64,000 nucleotides of DNA from an uncultured Alphaproteobacteria bacterium. GTDB taxonomy: Bacteria; Pseudomonadota; Alphaproteobacteria; Rs-D84. The notes under the pieces were generated by a model that worked only from the letters and a program-made list of their open reading frames with translations, was not told the origin of the DNA and did not search any database. The stretch's first letter is position 1; each line of letters begins with the position of its first letter. Where the stretch lies: NCBI GenBank assembly GCA_947175875.1, contig CAMWON010000003.1, positions 72,746 through 136,745 of the forward strand, given 5' to 3'. The position numbers were made by a program, and so were the translations under genes. Shown here one piece after another: positions 3,252 through 60,401 of this stretch.

Positions 3252-5018
3252 ATGTTGCCACGCGCCCGCCCGGATAAAGGCTTGGAAGAAAAAAAGCGCC
3301 CGTCATTTCGCATGCGGTTGCTGTTTTGGTGCCTAAATCTTGTCGCGCTGTTGATTGCGGCGGGGCTGACATATGTCATGATAATTTTTCTGCAGATGCC
3401 GTCGTTGGACGCCATTTTGCATGAAACAAGACCAGCTGCGATTGTGTTTTTGGATAAAAACGGCACGGAAATACGCAGTTCCAATCGAATTATGGGAATG
3501 CCGGTGTCAACGGATACCGTCCCGCCCTATGTATGGCAGGCGATTGTCGCCATAGAAGACAAGCGTTTTTTTGAGCACGGGCCGGTTGATATGCGGGGCA
3601 TCACGCGTGCGGTTTTAACAAATCTGGTGCATGGGCGCGTTGCTGCGGGCGGCTCGTCCATAACACAGCAGACGGCAAAAAACGTATTCTTGTCGCGTGA
3701 AAAGAAACTGTCGCGCAAGATTCAGGAATTGATTTTGTCATACTGGCTGGAAAACAGGTTTGACAAGAATCAGATATTGGATTTGTACATGAACCGCGTG
3801 TCGCTGGTGGGCGGAATGCGCGGAATCGATGCGGCCGCACGCGTGATGTTTCAGGTGTCTGCACGCGACATGACCCTGGCCCAGGCGGCTCAGATTGCCG
3901 CCATGTTAAAGGCGCCGACCACATACAGCCCGCTGAAAAATCCGGACAAGAATATTGCGCGCGCCCGCGTTATTTTACAGGAAATGGTCCGCCAGGGTTA
4001 TATTACGTTGAACCAGGCGCGCGCGGCGGCGGCCGCACTTGCGCCGGCCATGCCCGCACCCGACACAAATCTGTACAGATACTGGACCGATTTTGTTTTG
4101 GATGAAACGCGTTCGCGTCTGGGTGGCTTTAATACTGATTTGTTTGTATATACCACACTGGATATGAATCTGCAGGAGCGCATTGCCGCGATTTTGCCAT
4201 CCCGTGTCGGGGAATATCAGGGGGCGGTCGTCGCGATGGGGCATGACGGCGCACTGCGCGCAATGTCCGGTGGCGCCGATTACCAGGCCAGCCAGTATAA
4301 CCGCACACTGGCCATGCGACAACCCGGCAGTGCGTTTAAGCCGGTCGTATATCTGGTTGCGCTGGAACGGGGCCTGACGCCGGAGAGTTATGTTAACGAC
4401 TCGCCCTTTGCAATCGGGGATTACACGCCCAAGAATTATAACGCGCGCTATTACGGCGACATTCCGCTGTCCACGGCGTTTGCGAAAAGCGTCAATTCCG
4501 TCCCCTTAAAATTGACGGAGGAATACGGCATTGACGCCGTCTTGAATATGGCGGGCCGCTTAGGGGTCGGGACCCAGCTGCGTCGTGAATATTCAACGGT
4601 GCTGGGGGCGTCGGAGATGTCGCTGCTGGATTTGACGACGATATATGCGGTTATCTGGAATGACGGTGCGTCGGTGCGCCCATATTCGATTACCAAGATA
4701 ACTGACCCGGCGGGAAATGTTTTGTATTCTCGCAACCCGTCGGACGCCATCGCCGTTGTGGGGCCGCAGACGGTTGAATACATGACGCGGATGCTGGTCG
4801 ATGTTGTGACCGGCGGAACCGGACGCCGCGCAAACGCGCCGGGCGTTCTGGGGGGCAAGACCGGAACCAGCAACGAAAACCGCGATGCATGGTTTGTCGG
4901 CGCCACAGACAAATTGGTAATCGGCGTATGGGTCGGTAACGACGATTTTACGCCGATGTCGTCAAAAATTACAGGCGGTACAATCCCGGCGGAGATATTC
5001 CATGATATTGTGGAATAA
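3252..5018 (+). CDS. class A penicillin-binding protein (peptidoglycan glycosyltransferase + transpeptidase)
   Basis: N-terminal TM anchor. Glycosyltransferase motifs EDKRFFEHGPVD and GGSSITQQ are present. The transpeptidase motifs SAFKP (SxxK) and KTGTS (KTG) are also present. Confidence 0.85.
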   Translation: MLPRARPDKGLEEKKRPSFRMRLLFWCLNLVALLIAAGLTYVMIIFLQMPSLDAILHETRPAAIVFLDKNGTEIRSSNRIMGMPVSTDTVPPYVWQAIVAIEDKRFFEHGPVDMRGITRAVLTNLVHGRVAAGGSSITQQTAKNVFLSREKKLSRKIQELILSYWLENRFDKNQILDLYMNRVSLVGGMRGIDAAARVMFQVSARDMTLAQAAQIAAMLKAPTTYSPLKNPDKNIARARVILQEMVRQGYITLNQARAAAAALAPAMPAPDTNLYRYWTDFVLDETRSRLGGFNTDLFVYTTLDMNLQERIAAILPSRVGEYQGAVVAMGHDGALRAMSGGADYQASQYNRTLAMRQPGSAFKPVVYLVALERGLTPESYVNDSPFAIGDYTPKNYNARYYGDIPLSTAFAKSVNSVPLKLTEEYGIDAVLNMAGRLGVGTQLRREYSTVLGASEMSLLDLTTIYAVIWNDGASVRPYSITKITDPAGNVLYSRNPSDAIAVVGPQTVEYMTRMLVDVVTGGTGRRANAPGVLGGKTGTSNENRDAWFVGATDKLVIGVWVGNDDFTPMSSKITGGTIPAEIFHDIVE

Positions 5019-6889: not shown

Positions 6890-7876
6890 ATGCCGAACAT
6901 GAGAAAAAGTATATTTTGCATATTATCGGTTTTGTCATGCTTTGCGGTCGTGCCTGCGCTCGCAAACTGGGAATATTCGGGCACTTATCTGGGCGATGGA
7001 TGGTACACTGACGACGGTTCGCGCTTTGTCATGTCGGTCCGCGGCGGCGCCGCGCTGGGCTTTGGTTCGATAAAGAACGAGGTTGGGGCCCTAACCACCG
7101 AATATTATATAAACCCCGGCGACGGCATGGTTATATCGGCGGCGTATTATGACGCCTGTGTCGAGGGCGGCGGTTGCGCCGGATTTGAATACGCCGGCAT
7201 GGGTGAAACCTCCGCACTGCCCGCGGCCAAGGATTACCGTGAATATTCTTTTGCGGCCGGCGCGTCGCTGGGCTGGACGATTCCAAACCGTCCGCAGTGG
7301 CGTCTGGAAATCGGCTGGGACCATATATCAGAGGCGGAATATAACGCGTCCCCGTTATATGAAGGGGACCTGCATTTGGCCGGCGGCGATGTCGAAGGGG
7401 TTGTCGTCCATGTTCAAAGCGGCTCTATTCAGTCCAAAGTGACAACCGATTTAATCAGCGCAATGGCGTTTTACGATTTCTTTGACGGCATGCAAAAGCC
7501 TGTGCGTAAAATGATTCCGTATGTCGGCTTTGGCGTCGGATATGCGGATACGACGACGACACTGAATCTGGTTGACCCGTACGGCGACCTGTCAACGTCG
7601 GTTGACCTGCAGAATTTTGGTGAATTGGACGATTACGGCGTTCTGAACTTTTACCGTTCAGAAAACAGCTCTTCAAACATCGCCGGCGTGTTGGCGCTGG
7701 GTGTTTCGTACGGCATAAACCAGACAATGTTTTTGGATTTTGGCGCCCGCGTTTCTTATATTCCAAAGATAAAGTGGACCCTGAAAAATGAAGACGGTTC
7801 GCGCACGCGCGACTGGTTAAGTGCGGAAAACATGATATATGCAAACATCATGTTGGGCCTGCGTTTCGAGTTTTAA
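6890..7876 (+). CDS. outer-membrane beta-barrel protein (porin/OMP family)
   Basis: Signal peptide MRKSIFCILSVLSCFAVVPALA. Gly/Tyr/Asp-rich beta-strand pattern with C-terminal ...LGLRFEF. Confidence 0.55.
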   Translation: MPNMRKSIFCILSVLSCFAVVPALANWEYSGTYLGDGWYTDDGSRFVMSVRGGAALGFGSIKNEVGALTTEYYINPGDGMVISAAYYDACVEGGGCAGFEYAGMGETSALPAAKDYREYSFAAGASLGWTIPNRPQWRLEIGWDHISEAEYNASPLYEGDLHLAGGDVEGVVVHVQSGSIQSKVTTDLISAMAFYDFFDGMQKPVRKMIPYVGFGVGYADTTTTLNLVDPYGDLSTSVDLQNFGELDDYGVLNFYRSENSSSNIAGVLALGVSYGINQTMFLDFGARVSYIPKIKWTLKNEDGSRTRDWLSAENMIYANIMLGLRFEF

Positions 7877-7903
7877 AAAATCCGCCAAACGGCGGATTTT
7901 TTT
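7875..7903. terminator. bidirectional intrinsic terminator AAAAAATCCGCCAAACGGCGGATTTTTTT
   Basis: A GC hairpin (TCCGCC/GGCGGA) is flanked by an A-run and a T-run. It lies between the convergent OMP gene (+) and the cysteine-rich gene (-). Confidence 0.6.
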
Positions 7904-8183
7904 AGTTGCTGTAATAACAGTCGCCCGTATATGTGCCGCTGCCGCCGGAATCGCTGAACGCGGCTCCCGCCGGAATATAACACGCGGTTATCCCGGTGTT
8001 GTTTTTGTCGGCGCTGGTCCCCTTAATCCCGCCCGACGACGGGCATTCCAGGCAGTTCCCGCCCGACAGGTAATATCCCGGCTTGCACGCCGTGTATGTC
8101 TTTGTTGTCGCCTCGCATGCGGCGCGGGCACCGATTGCGGGCAATATGCCCGCAATGACAGATATCAAGATATATTTTTTCAT
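7902..8183 (-). CDS. secreted cysteine-rich protein, C-terminal CY-P-G / SGT / C-YY motif family (second gene of operon)
   Basis: The true start is the MKKYILISVIAGILPAIGARA signal peptide at 8183. Its ATG overlaps the TAA of the upstream gene (TAATG). The C-terminus ITACYIPAGAAFSDSGGSGTYTGDCYYSN matches the paralogues at 9131, 13291 and 46052. Confidence 0.6.
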   Translation of the reverse strand: MKKYILISVIAGILPAIGARAACEATTKTYTACKPGYYLSGGNCLECPSSGGIKGTSADKNNTGITACYIPAGAAFSDSGGSGTYTGDCYYSN

Positions 8184-8539
8184 TACAATTGCTCTCCAAT
8201 ACATGCCAAACATTTAATATTTGAACCCATAGATATGTCGCAACATTCCACTTGTGAACTGGTTGCGTCGCATGTGCCATAGTTTTGGGTATAGTATCCT
8301 GTGTTGTCACTGCCGCTGGTGGAACTGCGACTGCATGTGTTGTCTAAGTAGCTCAGGGTATAGTTTTCAGGACACGCATATCGCGTTGTATACTTCCCGT
8401 TTGGACAGCATTGTTGACCGGAACTGCAGGTAAGCTGAAAGTCTTGAGTTGTTATGCAAAGTGCCGCCATTGCGGTGCCGATTGGCGGCGTCTGCCAGGC
8501 AATGATTGCGGCTATGAATAAAGTTTTTGTTTTCGTCAT
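8183..8539 (-). CDS. secreted cysteine-rich protein (13 Cys in ~118 aa)
   Basis: The start MTKTKTLFIAAIIAW... is a signal peptide. The mature part is Cys/Ser/Thr/Gly-rich. The gene is immediately preceded by leader copy A with a CAGGAG RBS. Confidence 0.6.
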   Translation of the reverse strand: MTKTKTLFIAAIIAWQTPPIGTAMAALCITTQDFQLTCSSGQQCCPNGKYTTRYACPENYTLSYLDNTCSRSSTSGSDNTGYYTQNYGTCDATSSQVECCDISMGSNIKCLACIGEQL

Positions 8540-8682
8540 TACTAACTCCTGTTTTGTTGAAAAACAAAAACCACCAAGATAAATGGTGGCCAGGAGGTTC
8601 ATAACAATTGTGAGAATTGCGTTGCGTATTTAAATATTCCGCAACCCTCCTGACCGGGTCAGGAGTTTGTTTTTCGTCACAA
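8540..8682 (-). promoter_or_regulatory. conserved structured 5' leader (copy A) of the cysteine-rich protein operon
   Basis: About 140 nt shared with copies at 8985-9130 and 13864-14008. It contains a hairpin CTCCTGACC..GGTCAGGAG and a second, covarying hairpin. A CCTCCTGGCC box precedes a CCACC..GGTGG hairpin plus T-run, directly in front of the RBS CAGGAG-ATG. Confidence 0.55.
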
Positions 8683-8814
8683 TACCCCCGCGCGCAATAC
8701 TTGCGCTATCGGTATGTATTCCGACGCCCCACATGAGGTTATGAAGCCTCGCCCCGGCAACACGCCCGGGCACAGACATTATATTTAATAAAGCCTAAAA
8801 AGTAAAGGGATATA

Positions 8815-8843
8815 AAGAAATCCGCCAAACGGCGGATTTTTTA
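8815..8843. terminator. second identical copy of hairpin AAATCCGCCAAACGGCGGATTTTTT
   Basis: The 25-nt core is identical to the terminator at 7875-7903. It sits in the spacer between the two divergent leaders. Confidence 0.45.
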
Positions 8844-8984
8844 TGATTAAAATTCTTTACATATTTGTGTTGCTGAGTTATAGTGACTTATGTCAGTGGG
8901 TGTTTCACTGATGGGGTGTGAGAACCCGTTCCAATGCGTCGGAATATTGTCTTATGGCGCGCTTTGTGCGCTGTTTTTTATATT

Positions 8985-9130
8985 ACGACGAAAAACAAAA
9001 CTCCTGAACCGCGGGTCAGGAGGGCACGCGAAATATTCAAATACGCGGCACAATTCATTGGATTGTTCTCAACCTCCTGGCCACCAGATTTTGGTGGTTT
9101 TTTGTTTAACAAAAATCAGGAGATTGAATT
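8985..9130 (+). promoter_or_regulatory. conserved structured 5' leader (copy B)
   Basis: Same architecture as copy A: GACGAAAAACAAAACTCCTGAACCGCGGGTCAGGAGGG ... AACCTCCTGGCCACCAGATTTTGGTGGTTTTTTGTTT ... CAGGAG-N7-ATG. A -10-like TATATT lies just upstream. Confidence 0.55.
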
Positions 9131-9763
9131 ATGAAAAATCTATCAATTATTTCGCTATTGGCGATAATTAGTTGCGGACATGCGCCTGCTGTGGCAAGTT
9201 CCGCGCAATTTTATTGTTCGGACGGCTCGCGTCCCACAACGGGCTCTGGATATGATACATTTTGTGACGAGGCTGTTTTTTATACCTATTTGGGAGATAA
9301 TATTCGATGCGATACGGATGCTGATTGCTTTGACGGTGGAAATGCGAAATACGATTATGACGAACAAGATGTATATTGCTATAAAGGAACCTATGGATAT
9401 GTCAGCAACCGGGAAACATACGGTATTTGCGCCTATAAATACAGAAATGAAGCTGAATGCAAAAGCAATCAATTTTTTGGCTCCTGGTATGCGACCACAT
9501 TGGACAATCCAATCTTGGATAATGTGTGCATGATGTGTCCGGATAATGCGACTTGTGACGGAAAGGATGTAGAGTGTCATGATGGCTATTATTTAACAAA
9601 CACAAATACGCCATATAATCCCATATGCGCCAAGTGTCCCGGTGCTCCAGGCTTAATAGTGCACAGCAATAACGCAATACGCATAGAGGAATGTTACGCC
9701 ACTGGTGGCACAGACAGCAGTGGTACATTTGAATATACCGGTATGTGTACGTATTCGGAATGA
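9131..9763 (+). CDS. secreted cysteine-rich protein (family member, 210 aa)
   Basis: Signal peptide MKNLSIISLLAIISCGHAPAVA. There are 22 Cys. The C-terminus IEECYATGGTDSSGTFEYTGMCTYSE shares the family motif. Confidence 0.65.
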   Translation: MKNLSIISLLAIISCGHAPAVASSAQFYCSDGSRPTTGSGYDTFCDEAVFYTYLGDNIRCDTDADCFDGGNAKYDYDEQDVYCYKGTYGYVSNRETYGICAYKYRNEAECKSNQFFGSWYATTLDNPILDNVCMMCPDNATCDGKDVECHDGYYLTNTNTPYNPICAKCPGAPGLIVHSNNAIRIEECYATGGTDSSGTFEYTGMCTYSE

Positions 9764-13266: not shown

Positions 13267-13292
13267 TAAATCCCGCATCTGCGGGATTTTTT
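13267..13292. terminator. bidirectional intrinsic terminator AAATCCCGCATCTGCGGGATTTTTT
   Basis: GC hairpin with a flanking A-run and T-run, between secG (+) and the convergent cysteine-rich gene (-). Confidence 0.6.
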
Positions 13293-13863
13293 AATTTTTG
13301 TAATAGCAGTTTCCGCCGACAATTGTGCCGCTGCCCGTGCTGTCAGAAAAACTGCTGCCCGATGGCAGATAACACGATGTTATCGATGTTGCGCCGGCAG
13401 ATGCGGTTGTGCCGTACGTGCCGCCTGATGCCGGGCATCTGGTGCATCCGCTGGTGCCGTTTGTTGATGTGCCATAATATCCCTTGGCGCATCGGTATTT
13501 TTTTGTCGCGTCGCATGCCGACCCGCATTGAACGCTGTACTCATAACCTGTATTGCCGGCGGTCCACGCCACATCTTTGCAATTATTGCTGCATACGCAT
13601 TCCGTGCCGGATATGTTTGTACATGTTCCTGCTCTAACTTGTTTCAGGGTGCGATTCCCGGAACATTTGGTGCACCAATAAACATTGCTGGTCGTTATGC
13701 TTTCCACGTAATAGCATCCGCCATTATGGCCGGCTATGCAATAATCATAACTGCCAATCGTATTGGAACCGTTGGTGCATCCGGTACGTGTCTCGCATAC
13801 CGCGGCGAATACATTTACTGGCATGCAGATAAATGCAATTATTGGTAAAATTATGTTTTTCAT
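13291..13863 (-). CDS. secreted cysteine-rich protein (family member)
   Basis: The start at MKNIILPIIAFICMPVNVFAA is a signal peptide. There are 23 Cys. The C-terminus SCYLPSGSSFSDSTGSGTIVGGNCYYKN shares the family motif. It is preceded by leader copy C. Confidence 0.65.
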   Translation of the reverse strand: MKNIILPIIAFICMPVNVFAAVCETRTGCTNGSNTIGSYDYCIAGHNGGCYYVESITTSNVYWCTKCSGNRTLKQVRAGTCTNISGTECVCSNNCKDVAWTAGNTGYEYSVQCGSACDATKKYRCAKGYYGTSTNGTSGCTRCPASGGTYGTTASAGATSITSCYLPSGSSFSDSTGSGTIVGGNCYYKN

Positions 13864-14008
13864 TCGTTCGTTCTCCTGTTGTTTTTCGAAATGAAAAACC
13901 ACCCAAAATTTGAGTGGCCAGGAGGTTCAGAACAATCTCAAGAATTGTGTGCTTATTCAATATATTCGCAACCCTCCTGACCTGCGGTTCAGGAGTTTAT
14001 TTTTCGTC
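13864..14008 (-). promoter_or_regulatory. conserved structured 5' leader (copy C)
   Basis: Same element as copies A and B. The hairpins are CTCCTGAACCGCAGGTCAGGAG and CCACTCAAATTTTGGGTGG plus T-run, then CCTCCTGGCC. The RBS CAGGAG lies 11 nt before the ATG. Confidence 0.55.
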
Positions 14009-14140
14009 CGAATATTAAAAATGGCGCTGTGCGCCCAATATTATATTCCTTGACGCTTGAGCAGAGGTTCTGACACCCCATCGGCGAAACACCCGCCGAC
14101 AAATAAATTATATATCACGCCATGCGCAAAAACAAGAAAT

Positions 14141-59591: not shown

Positions 59592-59933
59592 ATGCGTCAA
59601 GGTAAAGTAAAATGGTATAACGGCAAAAAGTGCTTTGGGTTTATTACACCGGATGCGCCGAATGCCGATGGCAATATGGATGATGTTTTCGTTCATTCCA
59701 GCGCTTTGAAAGAAGCCGGAATCAGATTTTTAAATGAAAATGATATCGTAGAGTTTGAAGAGGAGGTTCGCGGCGACAAACTGTCCGTCACGACAATCAA
59801 AGTTATTCAGCGCGACGAAGAATCTGCGCGCCGTTTCCACGAACGCCGTGCCGAACACCGCCGTTCCACCGAAGAGCGCAAAGCCCGCACCGAGCGCAGC
59901 GAGCGTCGCGGTTTTGCTTTCTGGAAAAAATAA
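59592..59933 (+). CDS. cspA: cold-shock protein with basic/acidic C-terminal extension
   Basis: CSD motifs KWYNGKKCFGFI and VFVHSS are followed by a ~40-aa Arg/Glu-rich tail. Confidence 0.8.
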   Translation: MRQGKVKWYNGKKCFGFITPDAPNADGNMDDVFVHSSALKEAGIRFLNENDIVEFEEEVRGDKLSVTTIKVIQRDEESARRFHERRAEHRRSTEERKARTERSERRGFAFWKK

Positions 59934-59943
59934 TTTTCAGATA

Positions 59944-59971
59944 AAAAATCCCCCGGTTGGGGGATTTTTTT
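59944..59971. terminator. bidirectional intrinsic terminator AAAAAATCCCCCGGTTGGGGGATTTTTTT
   Basis: GC hairpin with a flanking A-run and T-run, between convergent genes. Confidence 0.6.
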
Positions 59972-60401
59972 AATTAAACCATACGTATGCGCGTCCGTCC
60001 GGCGGATTCCCGGCCGGCTCGGTCATGGAAACGGTATCAAACCGGGTGTCCGCACCCGCCGCCACCGTGCCGTCTGTCGCGCCCACCGGCAGGCGCGCAA
60101 TATTTACCGTCCCGGACACCAGATTGTCCGCATTTGTATTGTCCACGTCCTTTACATTGCCCAGACCCACCTGTGCCGCCGTTACCGCGTGCGGATTTTC
60201 AGTGTTGCCCGTATGTGCCGCCAATGCCTCAGATATTGCCGGTACGCCCAAAGACGATACGATTTGATGAACATACGCGGAACTGGCAATCCCGATTCCG
60301 GACGTGGCCGCCGGTGCCGCGTTCCCCTCATCGGCATATGCGCCGCTTGTTATAATTGTCGTCGTAACAATTGGAATTAAAAAAAGATAGCGCTTCCGCA
60401 T
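59970..60401 (-). CDS. small secreted Ala/Gly/Thr-rich protein
   Basis: The start MRKRYLFLIPIVTTTIITSGAYA is a signal peptide. The mature part has ENPHAVTAAQVGLGNV...GTVNIARLP, a motif pattern reminiscent of phage tail-fibre segments. Confidence 0.45.
   Translation of the reverse strand: MRKRYLFLIPIVTTTIITSGAYADEGNAAPAATSGIGIASSAYVHQIVSSLGVPAISEALAAHTGNTENPHAVTAAQVGLGNVKDVDNTNADNLVSGTVNIARLPVGATDGTVAAGADTRFDTVSMTEPAGNPPDGRAYVWFN

Follow-up and report, generated by a model that had tools for sequence, protein, structure and literature searches.

What kind of element is the leader that stands before three genes for secreted cysteine-rich proteins in an uncultured alphaproteobacterium of the lineage Rs-D84? 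The stretch of DNA analysed here (the window) comprises 64,000 nucleotides of contig CAMWON010000003.1 (assembly GCA_947175875.1, positions 72,746 to 136,745), for which a preliminary description had proposed a structured 5' leader with Shine-Dalgarno (SD) mimicry as a candidate cis-regulatory RNA. We consider it probable, at about 0.6, that the leader is a cis-acting bistable transcription attenuator of about 245 nt, which would have its own sigma-70-type promoter and SD masking as a second layer. As judged from comparative sequence analysis, it most likely serves as an on/off switch for surface and secreted proteins. The alignments and folding calculations argue that two pairings are both under selection, that the hairpin before the gene is a canonical terminator, that the two states are mutually exclusive and nearly isoenergetic, and that the unit is tied to the 5' ends of genes.

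Leader anatomy and its two pairings

All three copies were found where they had been placed, copies A and C on the minus strand and copy B on the plus strand, each directly upstream of a gene in the same orientation and with the listed elements in the described order. Pairwise identity over the originally delimited span of about 145 nt is 74-79%. This is lower than the ~85% first given, but far above the 41-51% identity of the first 90 nt of the coding sequences (CDS), in line with the claim that the leader is better conserved than the coding start. The element itself is real, and its length of ~140 nt needed revision: because homology continues for about 100 nt beyond the former 5' boundary, up to a sigma-70-like promoter and with three extra hairpins, the leader measures about 245 nt. 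Every copy in the window is a whole unit of promoter, leader, SD and ATG. The window has exactly three occurrences of the 14-mer AACCTCCTGGCCAC, compared with 0.31 expected (none of 100 shuffles reached three), and searches with nhmmer and a covariance model (CM) found no fourth copy in the 64 kb.

Further copies were collected by scanning a genome collection with a pattern that required the three boxes a1, s1 and a2 described below. At least 117 stretches matched. After removal of seven chance matches 120 copies were kept, which is a lower bound, and 124 copies entered the folding and U-run sets. Because the loci are excerpts of about 8 kb, copy numbers are lower bounds as well. The consensus promoter reads CTTGCA at -35 and TATAAT at -10, and its position is conserved. 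P1 (GUCAnnnGG-GUGUU-CCnnnUGAU) lies at the predicted 5' end and is a 9-bp helix with 92-98% pairing, in which single positions show up to six pair types. P1b (GGGGU-GUGAGA-ACCC) has 4 bp with GC/GU/AU exchange, and P2 is a long hairpin, closed by CGUC/GACG in the consensus, for which 78 distinct outer helices occur among 114 copies (e.g., CAUCUGA/UCAGAUG and CGUCCGA/UUGGGCG); 86% of the copies fold with z < -2. P2 is terminator-like in copies B and C. A terminator function was rejected because in copy A the U-run is replaced by GGGGG paired to ACC, and P2 is taken as a helix only.

On the 3' side of P2, the consensus continues with an A-rich linker, a1 (CUCCUGA), a loop, s1 (GGUCAGGAGGG), the hairpins P4 and P5, a2 (AACCUCCUGACC) and the terminator hairpin T. 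In the most frequent box type, UGA, a1 is CUCCUGA, s1, the SD mimic, is GGUCAGGAGG, and a2 is CCUCCUGACC. P4 is a stem with a near-invariant loop GAAUAU..AAUA and P5 has the form ACAAUUC-loop-GAUUGU. T consists of ACCACC-loop-GGUGGU; after it come 7-8 U, an A-tract complementary to the U-run, the SD and AUG.

Covariation in the 3' domain was examined with CM R1, which has 142 positions and 24 pairs; a search of 40 sources gave 51 matches with scores from 128.8 to 18.5 bits, for which the CM E-values are rough. In the alignment of these matches 93.8% of the cells are paired, compared with 83.6% in shuffles. The covariation score is 0.328 versus 0.164 in shuffles (none of 500 reached it) and 0.016-0.087 with slid partners, a control that removes phylogenetic relatedness, which the shuffles do not. 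Double changes are present in 17 of the 24 pairs. The a1:s1 helix (helix 1) is 98.6% paired and the T helix (helix 4) 97.3%, each with double changes in five of seven pairs; in P4 all four pairs show double changes, and P5 has AU to UA exchange in 11 sequences. The T stem varies from CCACC/GGUGG to CCGUC/GACGG, CCGC/GCGG, CCAUC/GAUGG and CCUAUC/GAUAGG, and at least 7 U in 9 nt follow it in 116 of 124 copies. The hairpin called terminator-like in the preliminary description thus covaries and has a U-run in essentially every copy. In RNA that reads through, the U-run is predicted to pair with the downstream A-tract in two thirds of the copies (mean z -2.9).

The second pairing, s1:a2, lies outside the CM structure and was scored separately. 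MAFFT shifts the boxes of AAC type by one column; for this reason, pairs of s1:a2 and a1:s1 were tabulated in register, with GGAG/CUCC as anchors. Over 10 positions, s1:a2 is 94.6% paired versus 81.6% after shuffling of a2 among the sequences, and none of 2000 shuffles attained the observed value. Diverged copies found by nhmmer and CM reveal three box alleles (UGA, AAC and AGC) in which a1, s1 and a2 change jointly: the AAC allele has CUCCAAC, GUUGGAGG and CCUCCAAC, and the AGC allele combines s1 GCUGGAGG with a2 CCUCCAGC. All 15 non-UGA copies retain 9-10 of the 10 s1:a2 pairs, and L039 and L026 carry an additional GGAGU:ACUCC exchange that is present only in s1:a2. Unguided, RNAalifold picks s1:a2, P5 and T from the 124 copies. 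This three-box covariation bears out the earlier proposal that the SD-mimic arm pairs alternately with the 5' arm of hairpin 1 or with a CCUCCUG box. A change in s1 needs simultaneous changes in a1 and a2, so that few discrete alleles are expected, and the conservation of the boxes is explicable without any trans factor.

The s1:a2 helix has 9-10 bp, including a G-C pair at +4 and G-C at -4/-5 that are mostly absent from the a1 pairing, while a1:s1 has 7 bp and two weaker pairs. Constrained folding of the 124 copies gave -31.4 kcal/mol for a1:s1 and -30.0 kcal/mol for s1:a2, a difference of -1.4 with a standard deviation of 2.6. The unconstrained minimum free energy structure is the a1:s1 state in 68% of the copies and the s1:a2 state in 26%. 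When s1:a2 forms, P4 and P5 are enclosed in a three-way junction and T loses its bottom 3 bp (ACC): the T stem has 8.4 bp with a1:s1 enforced and 3.1 bp with s1:a2 enforced. The leader therefore contains a GC-rich hairpin with a U-tract before the start codon, a conserved antiterminator helix that shares nucleotides with this terminator, and a competing anti-antiterminator, a1:s1.

The unit is linked to genes. A co-oriented SD and open reading frame (ORF) directly follow the leader in 107 of 120 copies, at a median of 56 nt after a2. From the U-run to the start codon the median distance is 35 nt, too short for a separate promoter to fit in; as there is none between U-run and ORF, the downstream genes depend on read-through. 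Leaders are about 80-90% identical across at least 44 metagenome-assembled genomes (MAGs) although the downstream proteins are only 40-60% identical or unrelated. Together with the compensatory substitutions, this upholds the suggestion that selection acts on the RNA itself.

Proposed switch and competing explanations

Folding suggests how the two pairings could control expression. In state A, the local a1:s1 hairpin would form first during transcription and leave a2 single-stranded, allowing the full T of 8-9 bp to form, and RNA polymerase would halt about 35 nt before the start codon; in transcripts that read through, the free a2 is predicted to cover the SD. In state B, s1 would pair with a2 over 9-10 bp, closing the three-way junction with P4 and P5. 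Because s1:a2 uses the ACC at the bottom of T, the terminator would be crippled and the gene transcribed, and a2 would no longer be free to mask the SD. We infer that the default state is OFF and that the balance is shifted by a small molecule or protein at the junction or the P4 loop, or by a factor binding a1. The junction with its near-invariant P4 loop is the best candidate docking site.

A further-reaching version of this scheme is more speculative, and we offer it tentatively. The P4/P5 junction might function as the aptamer of a so far undescribed class of riboswitch, or a dedicated antiterminator protein might dock there. Either way, with dozens of copies in a genome of less than 1 Mb, it would convey one signal to the whole variable proteome of Cys-rich surface and secreted proteins in Rs-D84/Enterousia. 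For a new riboswitch class, the conserved P4 loop (GAAUAU..AAUA) and junction and the bistability speak indirectly. The UGA, AAC and AGC alleles might then be orthogonal sub-regulons, one of which feeds XRE regulators, and terminated leaders might also be anti-SD small RNAs that cross-repress sibling mRNAs.

With regard to the SD, a2 pairs with it at a predicted probability of 0.85 when a1:s1 is enforced. Covariation of the box allele with the real SD was looked for and was weak (the expected UUGG extension of the SD is found in only one of seven AAC-type copies), so the a2:SD pairing is a matter of energy prediction. A translational layer on top of attenuation is plausible in these models, but weaker than attenuation itself.

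Several observations weigh against the attenuator. With s1:a2 enforced, the distant a1 is predicted to take the SD with probability 0.81; because a1 masks the SD in state B, thermodynamics alone do not predict a clean translational ON state. The CA extension of the SD (xCA-GGAG), which is complementary to a2, occurs in only 42% of type-1 genes compared with a background of 19%, a 2-fold enrichment. The overlap between s1:a2 and T amounts to only 3-4 nt, and a leaky constitutive terminator would look identical in sequence. The regulated genes, orphan secreted proteins and XRE regulators, offer no metabolic clue. A few copies lack a downstream ORF, for example the orphan promoter-leader-terminator unit of locus L056 (4287-4427, minus strand). 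Finally, because the search pattern fixed the box sequences, the predominance of UGA and the invariance of the boxes over 120 copies are partly due to ascertainment. A box-agnostic metagenome pattern built on the P4 loop gave only five Enterousia-like loci, four of them non-UGA, and provided the AGC allele and more AAC copies.

The best-surviving alternative, which we nevertheless regard as unlikely, is that the family consists of genes for trans-acting small RNAs (sRNAs). The product would be a structured RNA of about 215 nt with a Rho-independent terminator, its a2, single-stranded in state A, would act as the seed for SD regions (UCAGGAG) of other mRNAs or sibling leaders, and the downstream genes would be expressed via leakage. 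The full promoter and strong terminator in every copy agree with this, as do the several copies per genome (at least six in one MAG) and the discrete box alleles that occur side by side in one genome. The orphan unit of L056 also fits; it is followed by a second, tandem unit (4047-4183, minus strand) and then an XRE-family gene (3694-4044), both units having the AGC allele, and a few more copies lack an adjacent ORF. On the other hand, independent transcription units are confined to such rare orphans, whereas 107 of 120 copies are fused to a co-oriented SD and ORF about 35 nt past the U-run with no promoter between. Intramolecular pairing explains the triple covariation of a1, s1 and a2, and no target complementarity was found beyond generic SD sequences. 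An sRNA function is compatible with an attenuator, since leaders released at the terminator could go on to work as sRNAs, and the L056 orphan indicates that they may also act as RNAs themselves. Because about 90% of the copies are fused to an ORF, such a role is kept as a rival or an addition.

A purely translational riboregulator or RNA thermometer, in which anti-SD boxes mask the SD and open with temperature or a factor while T is a spacer, appears improbable. It would account for the two anti-SD and two SD-like boxes, for an SD that, by prediction, is paired in about 92-94% of the ensemble, and for the 2-fold enrichment of CAGGAG-type SDs. It would not account for a covarying GC-rich T stem with 7-8 U in 94% of the copies, which is a terminator signature. 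Downstream SDs vary (GGAGG, GGGGG, CAGGAG) and are not matched to the box allele, as is also seen from the rarity of the UUGG extension in AAC-type copies. The bacterium lives in a warm-blooded gut, where temperature is constant. Of the riboregulator types originally suggested, an attenuator fits best, and a thermosensor found no specific support.

There is also little probability that the leader is a constitutive expression cassette, i.e., a strong promoter with a stabilising 5' untranslated region of the ompA type that was copied along with gene-family expansion, its alternative pairings being incidental and T damping expression. P1 does begin at the predicted 5' end, and the surface or secreted proteins encoded downstream are presumably abundant, but a passive stabiliser would not give three-way covariation of a1, s1 and a2 together with nearly equal exclusive folds, and the leader is attached to unrelated genes, XRE regulators included. 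Lastly, a dispersed repeat or mobile element (like repetitive extragenic palindromes or miniature inverted-repeat transposable elements) or a recent gene-conversion artefact without regulatory role is very improbable: copy number is high and contigs break within the leader (L001, L002), but orientation and start-codon distance are fixed in about 90% of the copies rather than independent of genes, as a randomly scattered repeat would have been, the leader is conserved with compensatory changes across at least 44 species-level MAGs while the flanking CDS diverged, and we noticed neither inverted nor direct terminal repeats in the alignment of the three copies, although no dedicated repeat search was made.

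Hosts, downstream genes and known RNAs

The matching stretches of the genome scan are nearly all from MAGs of Candidatus Enterousia or unclassified gut Alphaproteobacteria. Enterousia, of the order Rs-D84, is an uncultured, fermentative alphaproteobacterium with a reduced genome of less than 1 Mb (PMC12306168). Among the first 80 loci listed the leader was found in at least 44 assemblies, with several matches per assembly. The hosts of the MAGs include chicken, horse, rabbit, human, goat, sheep, deer and yak, and Enterousia occurs in human, poultry, rabbit, horse and ruminant guts. Two loci (L077 and L082, CAVGNU01) labelled Bacteroides fragilis contain typical leaders and Cys-rich secreted genes and are probably mis-binned Enterousia contigs. 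Contigs start or end inside the leader (L001 1-105, L002 1-105), and in many loci the element lies at a contig end; the leader repeat evidently breaks metagenome assemblies of Enterousia genomes. Such fragmentation of MAGs is of practical concern for annotators.

The P4-loop pattern mainly returned a high-copy repeat of about 350 nt from termite-gut metagenomes, which was not accepted as a family member. In this repeat (e.g., L132 289-318) the exact 17-nt P4-loop string GAATATATTGAATAAGC occurs in a hairpin flanked by GGAGG/CCUCC boxes. Its contigs (L122-L240) have a GC content of 41%, 6% of the DNA in long ORFs, and nearby ORFs for an endonuclease/reverse transcriptase like that of long interspersed nuclear elements; they are AT-rich and look like termite host DNA, with the repeat resembling a short interspersed nuclear element. 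Because the leader CM does not match it, the repeat was set aside as most likely a chance string match amplified by copy number.

The products encoded downstream of the leaders nearly all begin with a signal peptide and fall into 18 similarity clusters. The largest comprises 76 Cys-rich proteins, and others include several small secreted families, BspA/DUF285-like proteins and an outer-membrane beta-barrel protein. This diversity means that the leader, not the gene, is the conserved unit. Pfam assignments are mostly blank, with Ephrin_rec_like found in four and HTH_3 in three products. One of 103 downstream ORFs matches Ribosomal_L12 (E = 6.5e-27), where the ORF may be truly associated with the leader or may have been mis-assigned. 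Non-UGA leaders often precede small XRE/HTH_3 regulators (L034, L096, L111, L056, L241) and also secreted proteins (L177, L079). The AAC-allele leaders at L034 263-398, L096 753-888, L111 2202-2340 and L241 8617-8751 stand before regulators of 72-86 amino acids (aa), which start with M(x)I(I/V)LVD..(Y/F)(Y/F)G. In the genomes concerned, a UGA-type leader is often found no more than a few kb away.

Orphan secreted Cys-rich proteins, a few of them with ephrin-receptor-like repeats, appear to be the most expanded gene set of Enterousia and are likely to contact host or partner cells. If a single RNA switch indeed precedes these genes, it would be the main regulatory handle on the host or partner interface, and the leader would join the small number of structured cis-regulators known in alphaproteobacteria with genomes so reduced. 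For RNA biology it would be an orphan switch with more than 120 examples and unusually clean evidence for two folds, with triple covariation and an SD mimic as the shared strand. If a ligand exists, the leader would represent a new riboswitch class.

Searches with known RNA families agree with the preliminary description, which did not recognise the leader as a known riboswitch class. Rfam 15 at the gathering threshold returned only three tRNAs in the window, and E-value scans of the window and both leader regions gave terminator-like noise only. The best match, sRNA-Xcc1, scored 26.8 bits compared with a gathering score of 53 and was absent in copy C. No curated aptamer model of a described riboswitch class matched, and a literature search found no paper linking Enterousia or Rs-D84 with a riboswitch or RNA motif. 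The leader is functionally closest to attenuator leaders and riboswitch expression platforms and lies outside every described RNA family tried. It is unusual in having an SD mimic as the strand shared between two boxes resembling the 16S tail, a three-way-junction antiterminator, a high copy number in a genome of less than 1 Mb, and a regulon of orphan secreted Cys-rich proteins and XRE regulators.

Known systems share individual properties with it. Leaders of Gram-positive bacteria with a terminator, antiterminator and anti-antiterminator (pyr-PyrR, trp-TRAP, T-box, the pbuE adenine ON switch) likewise carry an intrinsic terminator within the 5' leader, a helix upstream with nucleotides in common with the 5' arm of the terminator, a third segment competing for the antiterminator strand, and two nearly isoenergetic folds. 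The Enterousia leader differs by its SD/anti-SD look-alike strands, the conserved loop in its three-way-junction antiterminator, the lack of an Rfam match, its alphaproteobacterial host with a genome of less than 1 Mb, and its orphan secreted Cys-rich regulon. A leader-peptide attenuator of the trp/leu/phe type was rejected: the s1-to-a2 spacing occurs in all mod 3 classes (58/40/26), 51 of 124 copies lack any start codon downstream of the SD mimic, and the ORFs differ widely in length. SD-sequestering riboswitches and thermometers (ROSE, fourU) also have an anti-SD box and an anti-anti-SD, here s1, that can release the SD; the Enterousia leader, in contrast, has a canonical terminator between box and SD, an SD that is predicted to be masked in both states, and no match to the ROSE or fourU Rfam models. 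The CcsR or 'cuckoo' alpha-r14 sRNAs with anti-SD CCUCCUCCC loops, compared by description, are also multi-copy RNAs with C/U-rich anti-SD motifs and a Rho-independent terminator, whereas in the Enterousia leader CUCCUGA and CCUCCUGACC lie in helices instead of loops, about 90% of the copies are fused to an ORF, and Rfam gives no match. With the second-messenger riboswitches c-di-GMP-I/II, which precede surface, adhesin or secreted-protein genes, the leader shares the kind of genes controlled and a multi-helix junction followed by a terminator, but it has no sequence or structure match to them at Rfam gathering or E-value thresholds.

The three copies in the window and their genes

Copy B, on the plus strand, has its promoter at 8856-8884, with TTTACA (8856-8861), a 17-nt spacer and TATAGT (8879-8884), a 10/12 match. 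The 5' domain (8892-8990) consists of P1 at 8892-8912, starting at the predicted 5' end, P1b at 8913-8927 (GGGGU/ACCC) and the long hairpin P2 at 8937-8990. The A-rich linker (8991-9000) is followed by a1, the anti-SD-like 5' arm CUCCUGAACC (9001-9010), which takes part in the covariation of helix 1, and by the SD mimic s1, GGGUCAGGAGG (9013-9023), the partner of either a1 or a2. P4 (9024-9049), with the conserved GAAUAU...AAUA loop, and the second hairpin P5 (9050-9066) are enclosed by s1:a2. The a2 box AACCUCCUGGCC (9071-9082) is the complement of s1, and its final 3-4 nt double as the base of T. The intrinsic terminator with its U-run extends over 9079-9105 (stem-loop 9079-9099). The remaining segment, 9098-9133, comprises the U-run/A-run hairpin (9098-9115), the SD UCAGGAG (9116-9122) and ATG (9131-9133).

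In copy A, on the minus strand, the promoter TTTACT-17-TATAAT lies at 8778-8806 and the 5' domain at 8675-8773 (P1 8749-8773, P1b 8735-8750, P2 8675-8726). The switch core at 8588-8665 scores 114.7 bits with the CM and contains a1 (8657-8665), s1 (8646-8655), P4 (8621-8645), P5 (8605-8619) and a2 (8588-8599). Terminator and U-run occupy 8565-8591 (T 8569-8591), and the 3' segment (8537-8570) has the U-run/A-run hairpin at 8552-8570, the SD CAGGAG at 8546-8551 and ATG at 8537-8539. Copy C, also on the minus strand, has a promoter at 14107-14135 that was read from sequence and alignment, with TTGTTT at 14130-14135, a 17-nt spacer and TATAAT at 14107-14112. Its 5' domain spans 14005-14100 (P1 14080-14100, P1b 14064-14079, P2 14005-14055), and its core, at 127.6 bits, spans 13916-13995 (a1 13986-13995, s1 13973-13982, P4 13949-13972, P5 13932-13948, a2 13916-13927). 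T and its U-run lie at 13893-13919 (T 13897-13919), followed in the segment 13861-13898 by the U-run/A-run hairpin (13882-13898), the SD ACAGGAG (13873-13879) and ATG (13861-13863). For copies A and B, T was also recognised by a terminator scan. In a2 the window copies have GGCC, a minority form; the family consensus is GACC, the perfect complement of GGUC in s1.

Gene B (9131-9763, plus strand) encodes a signal-peptide protein of 210 aa with 16 Cys, and gene C (13291-13863, minus strand) one of 190 aa with 18 Cys. Copy A precedes a two-gene operon (7902-8539, minus strand) of gene A (8183-8539, 118 aa, 11 Cys) and gene A2 (7902-8183, 93 aa). An overlap between the stop codon of A and the start codon of A2 (TAATG, 8181-8185) suggests that translation of the two small secreted Cys-rich proteins, which are unrelated, is coupled downstream of a single leader. 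The downstream genes had been described as paralogous. Not all of them are: B, C and A2 have just a C-terminal Cys-rich domain in common (E = 3e-4 to 1e-17), and for protein A no similarity to B, C or A2 was detectable (E > 0.9). None of the window proteins matched a Pfam or NCBIfam family. Of the 104 homologues of protein C in the protein database, none has an informative Pfam domain. Protein C itself has the same sequence as a hypothetical protein from a MAG that bears the label Alphaproteobacteria bacterium; exact look-ups found neither protein B nor another homologue from the same MAG on record. At locus L003, a homologue of protein C with 57% identity carries a nearly unchanged leader.

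Two observations concern other hairpins around the leaders. The terminator hairpin AAAAATCCGCCAAACGGCGGATTTTT recurs in the window at 7874-7902, where it is shared by two convergent genes, at 8817-8845, between the divergent leader promoters of copies A and B, and at about 59928-59972. On the opposite strand, the a1:s1 hairpin with the A-rich linker (8647-8665, plus strand; 9001-9022, minus strand) scores as an intrinsic terminator, which could halt antisense transcription entering the leader.

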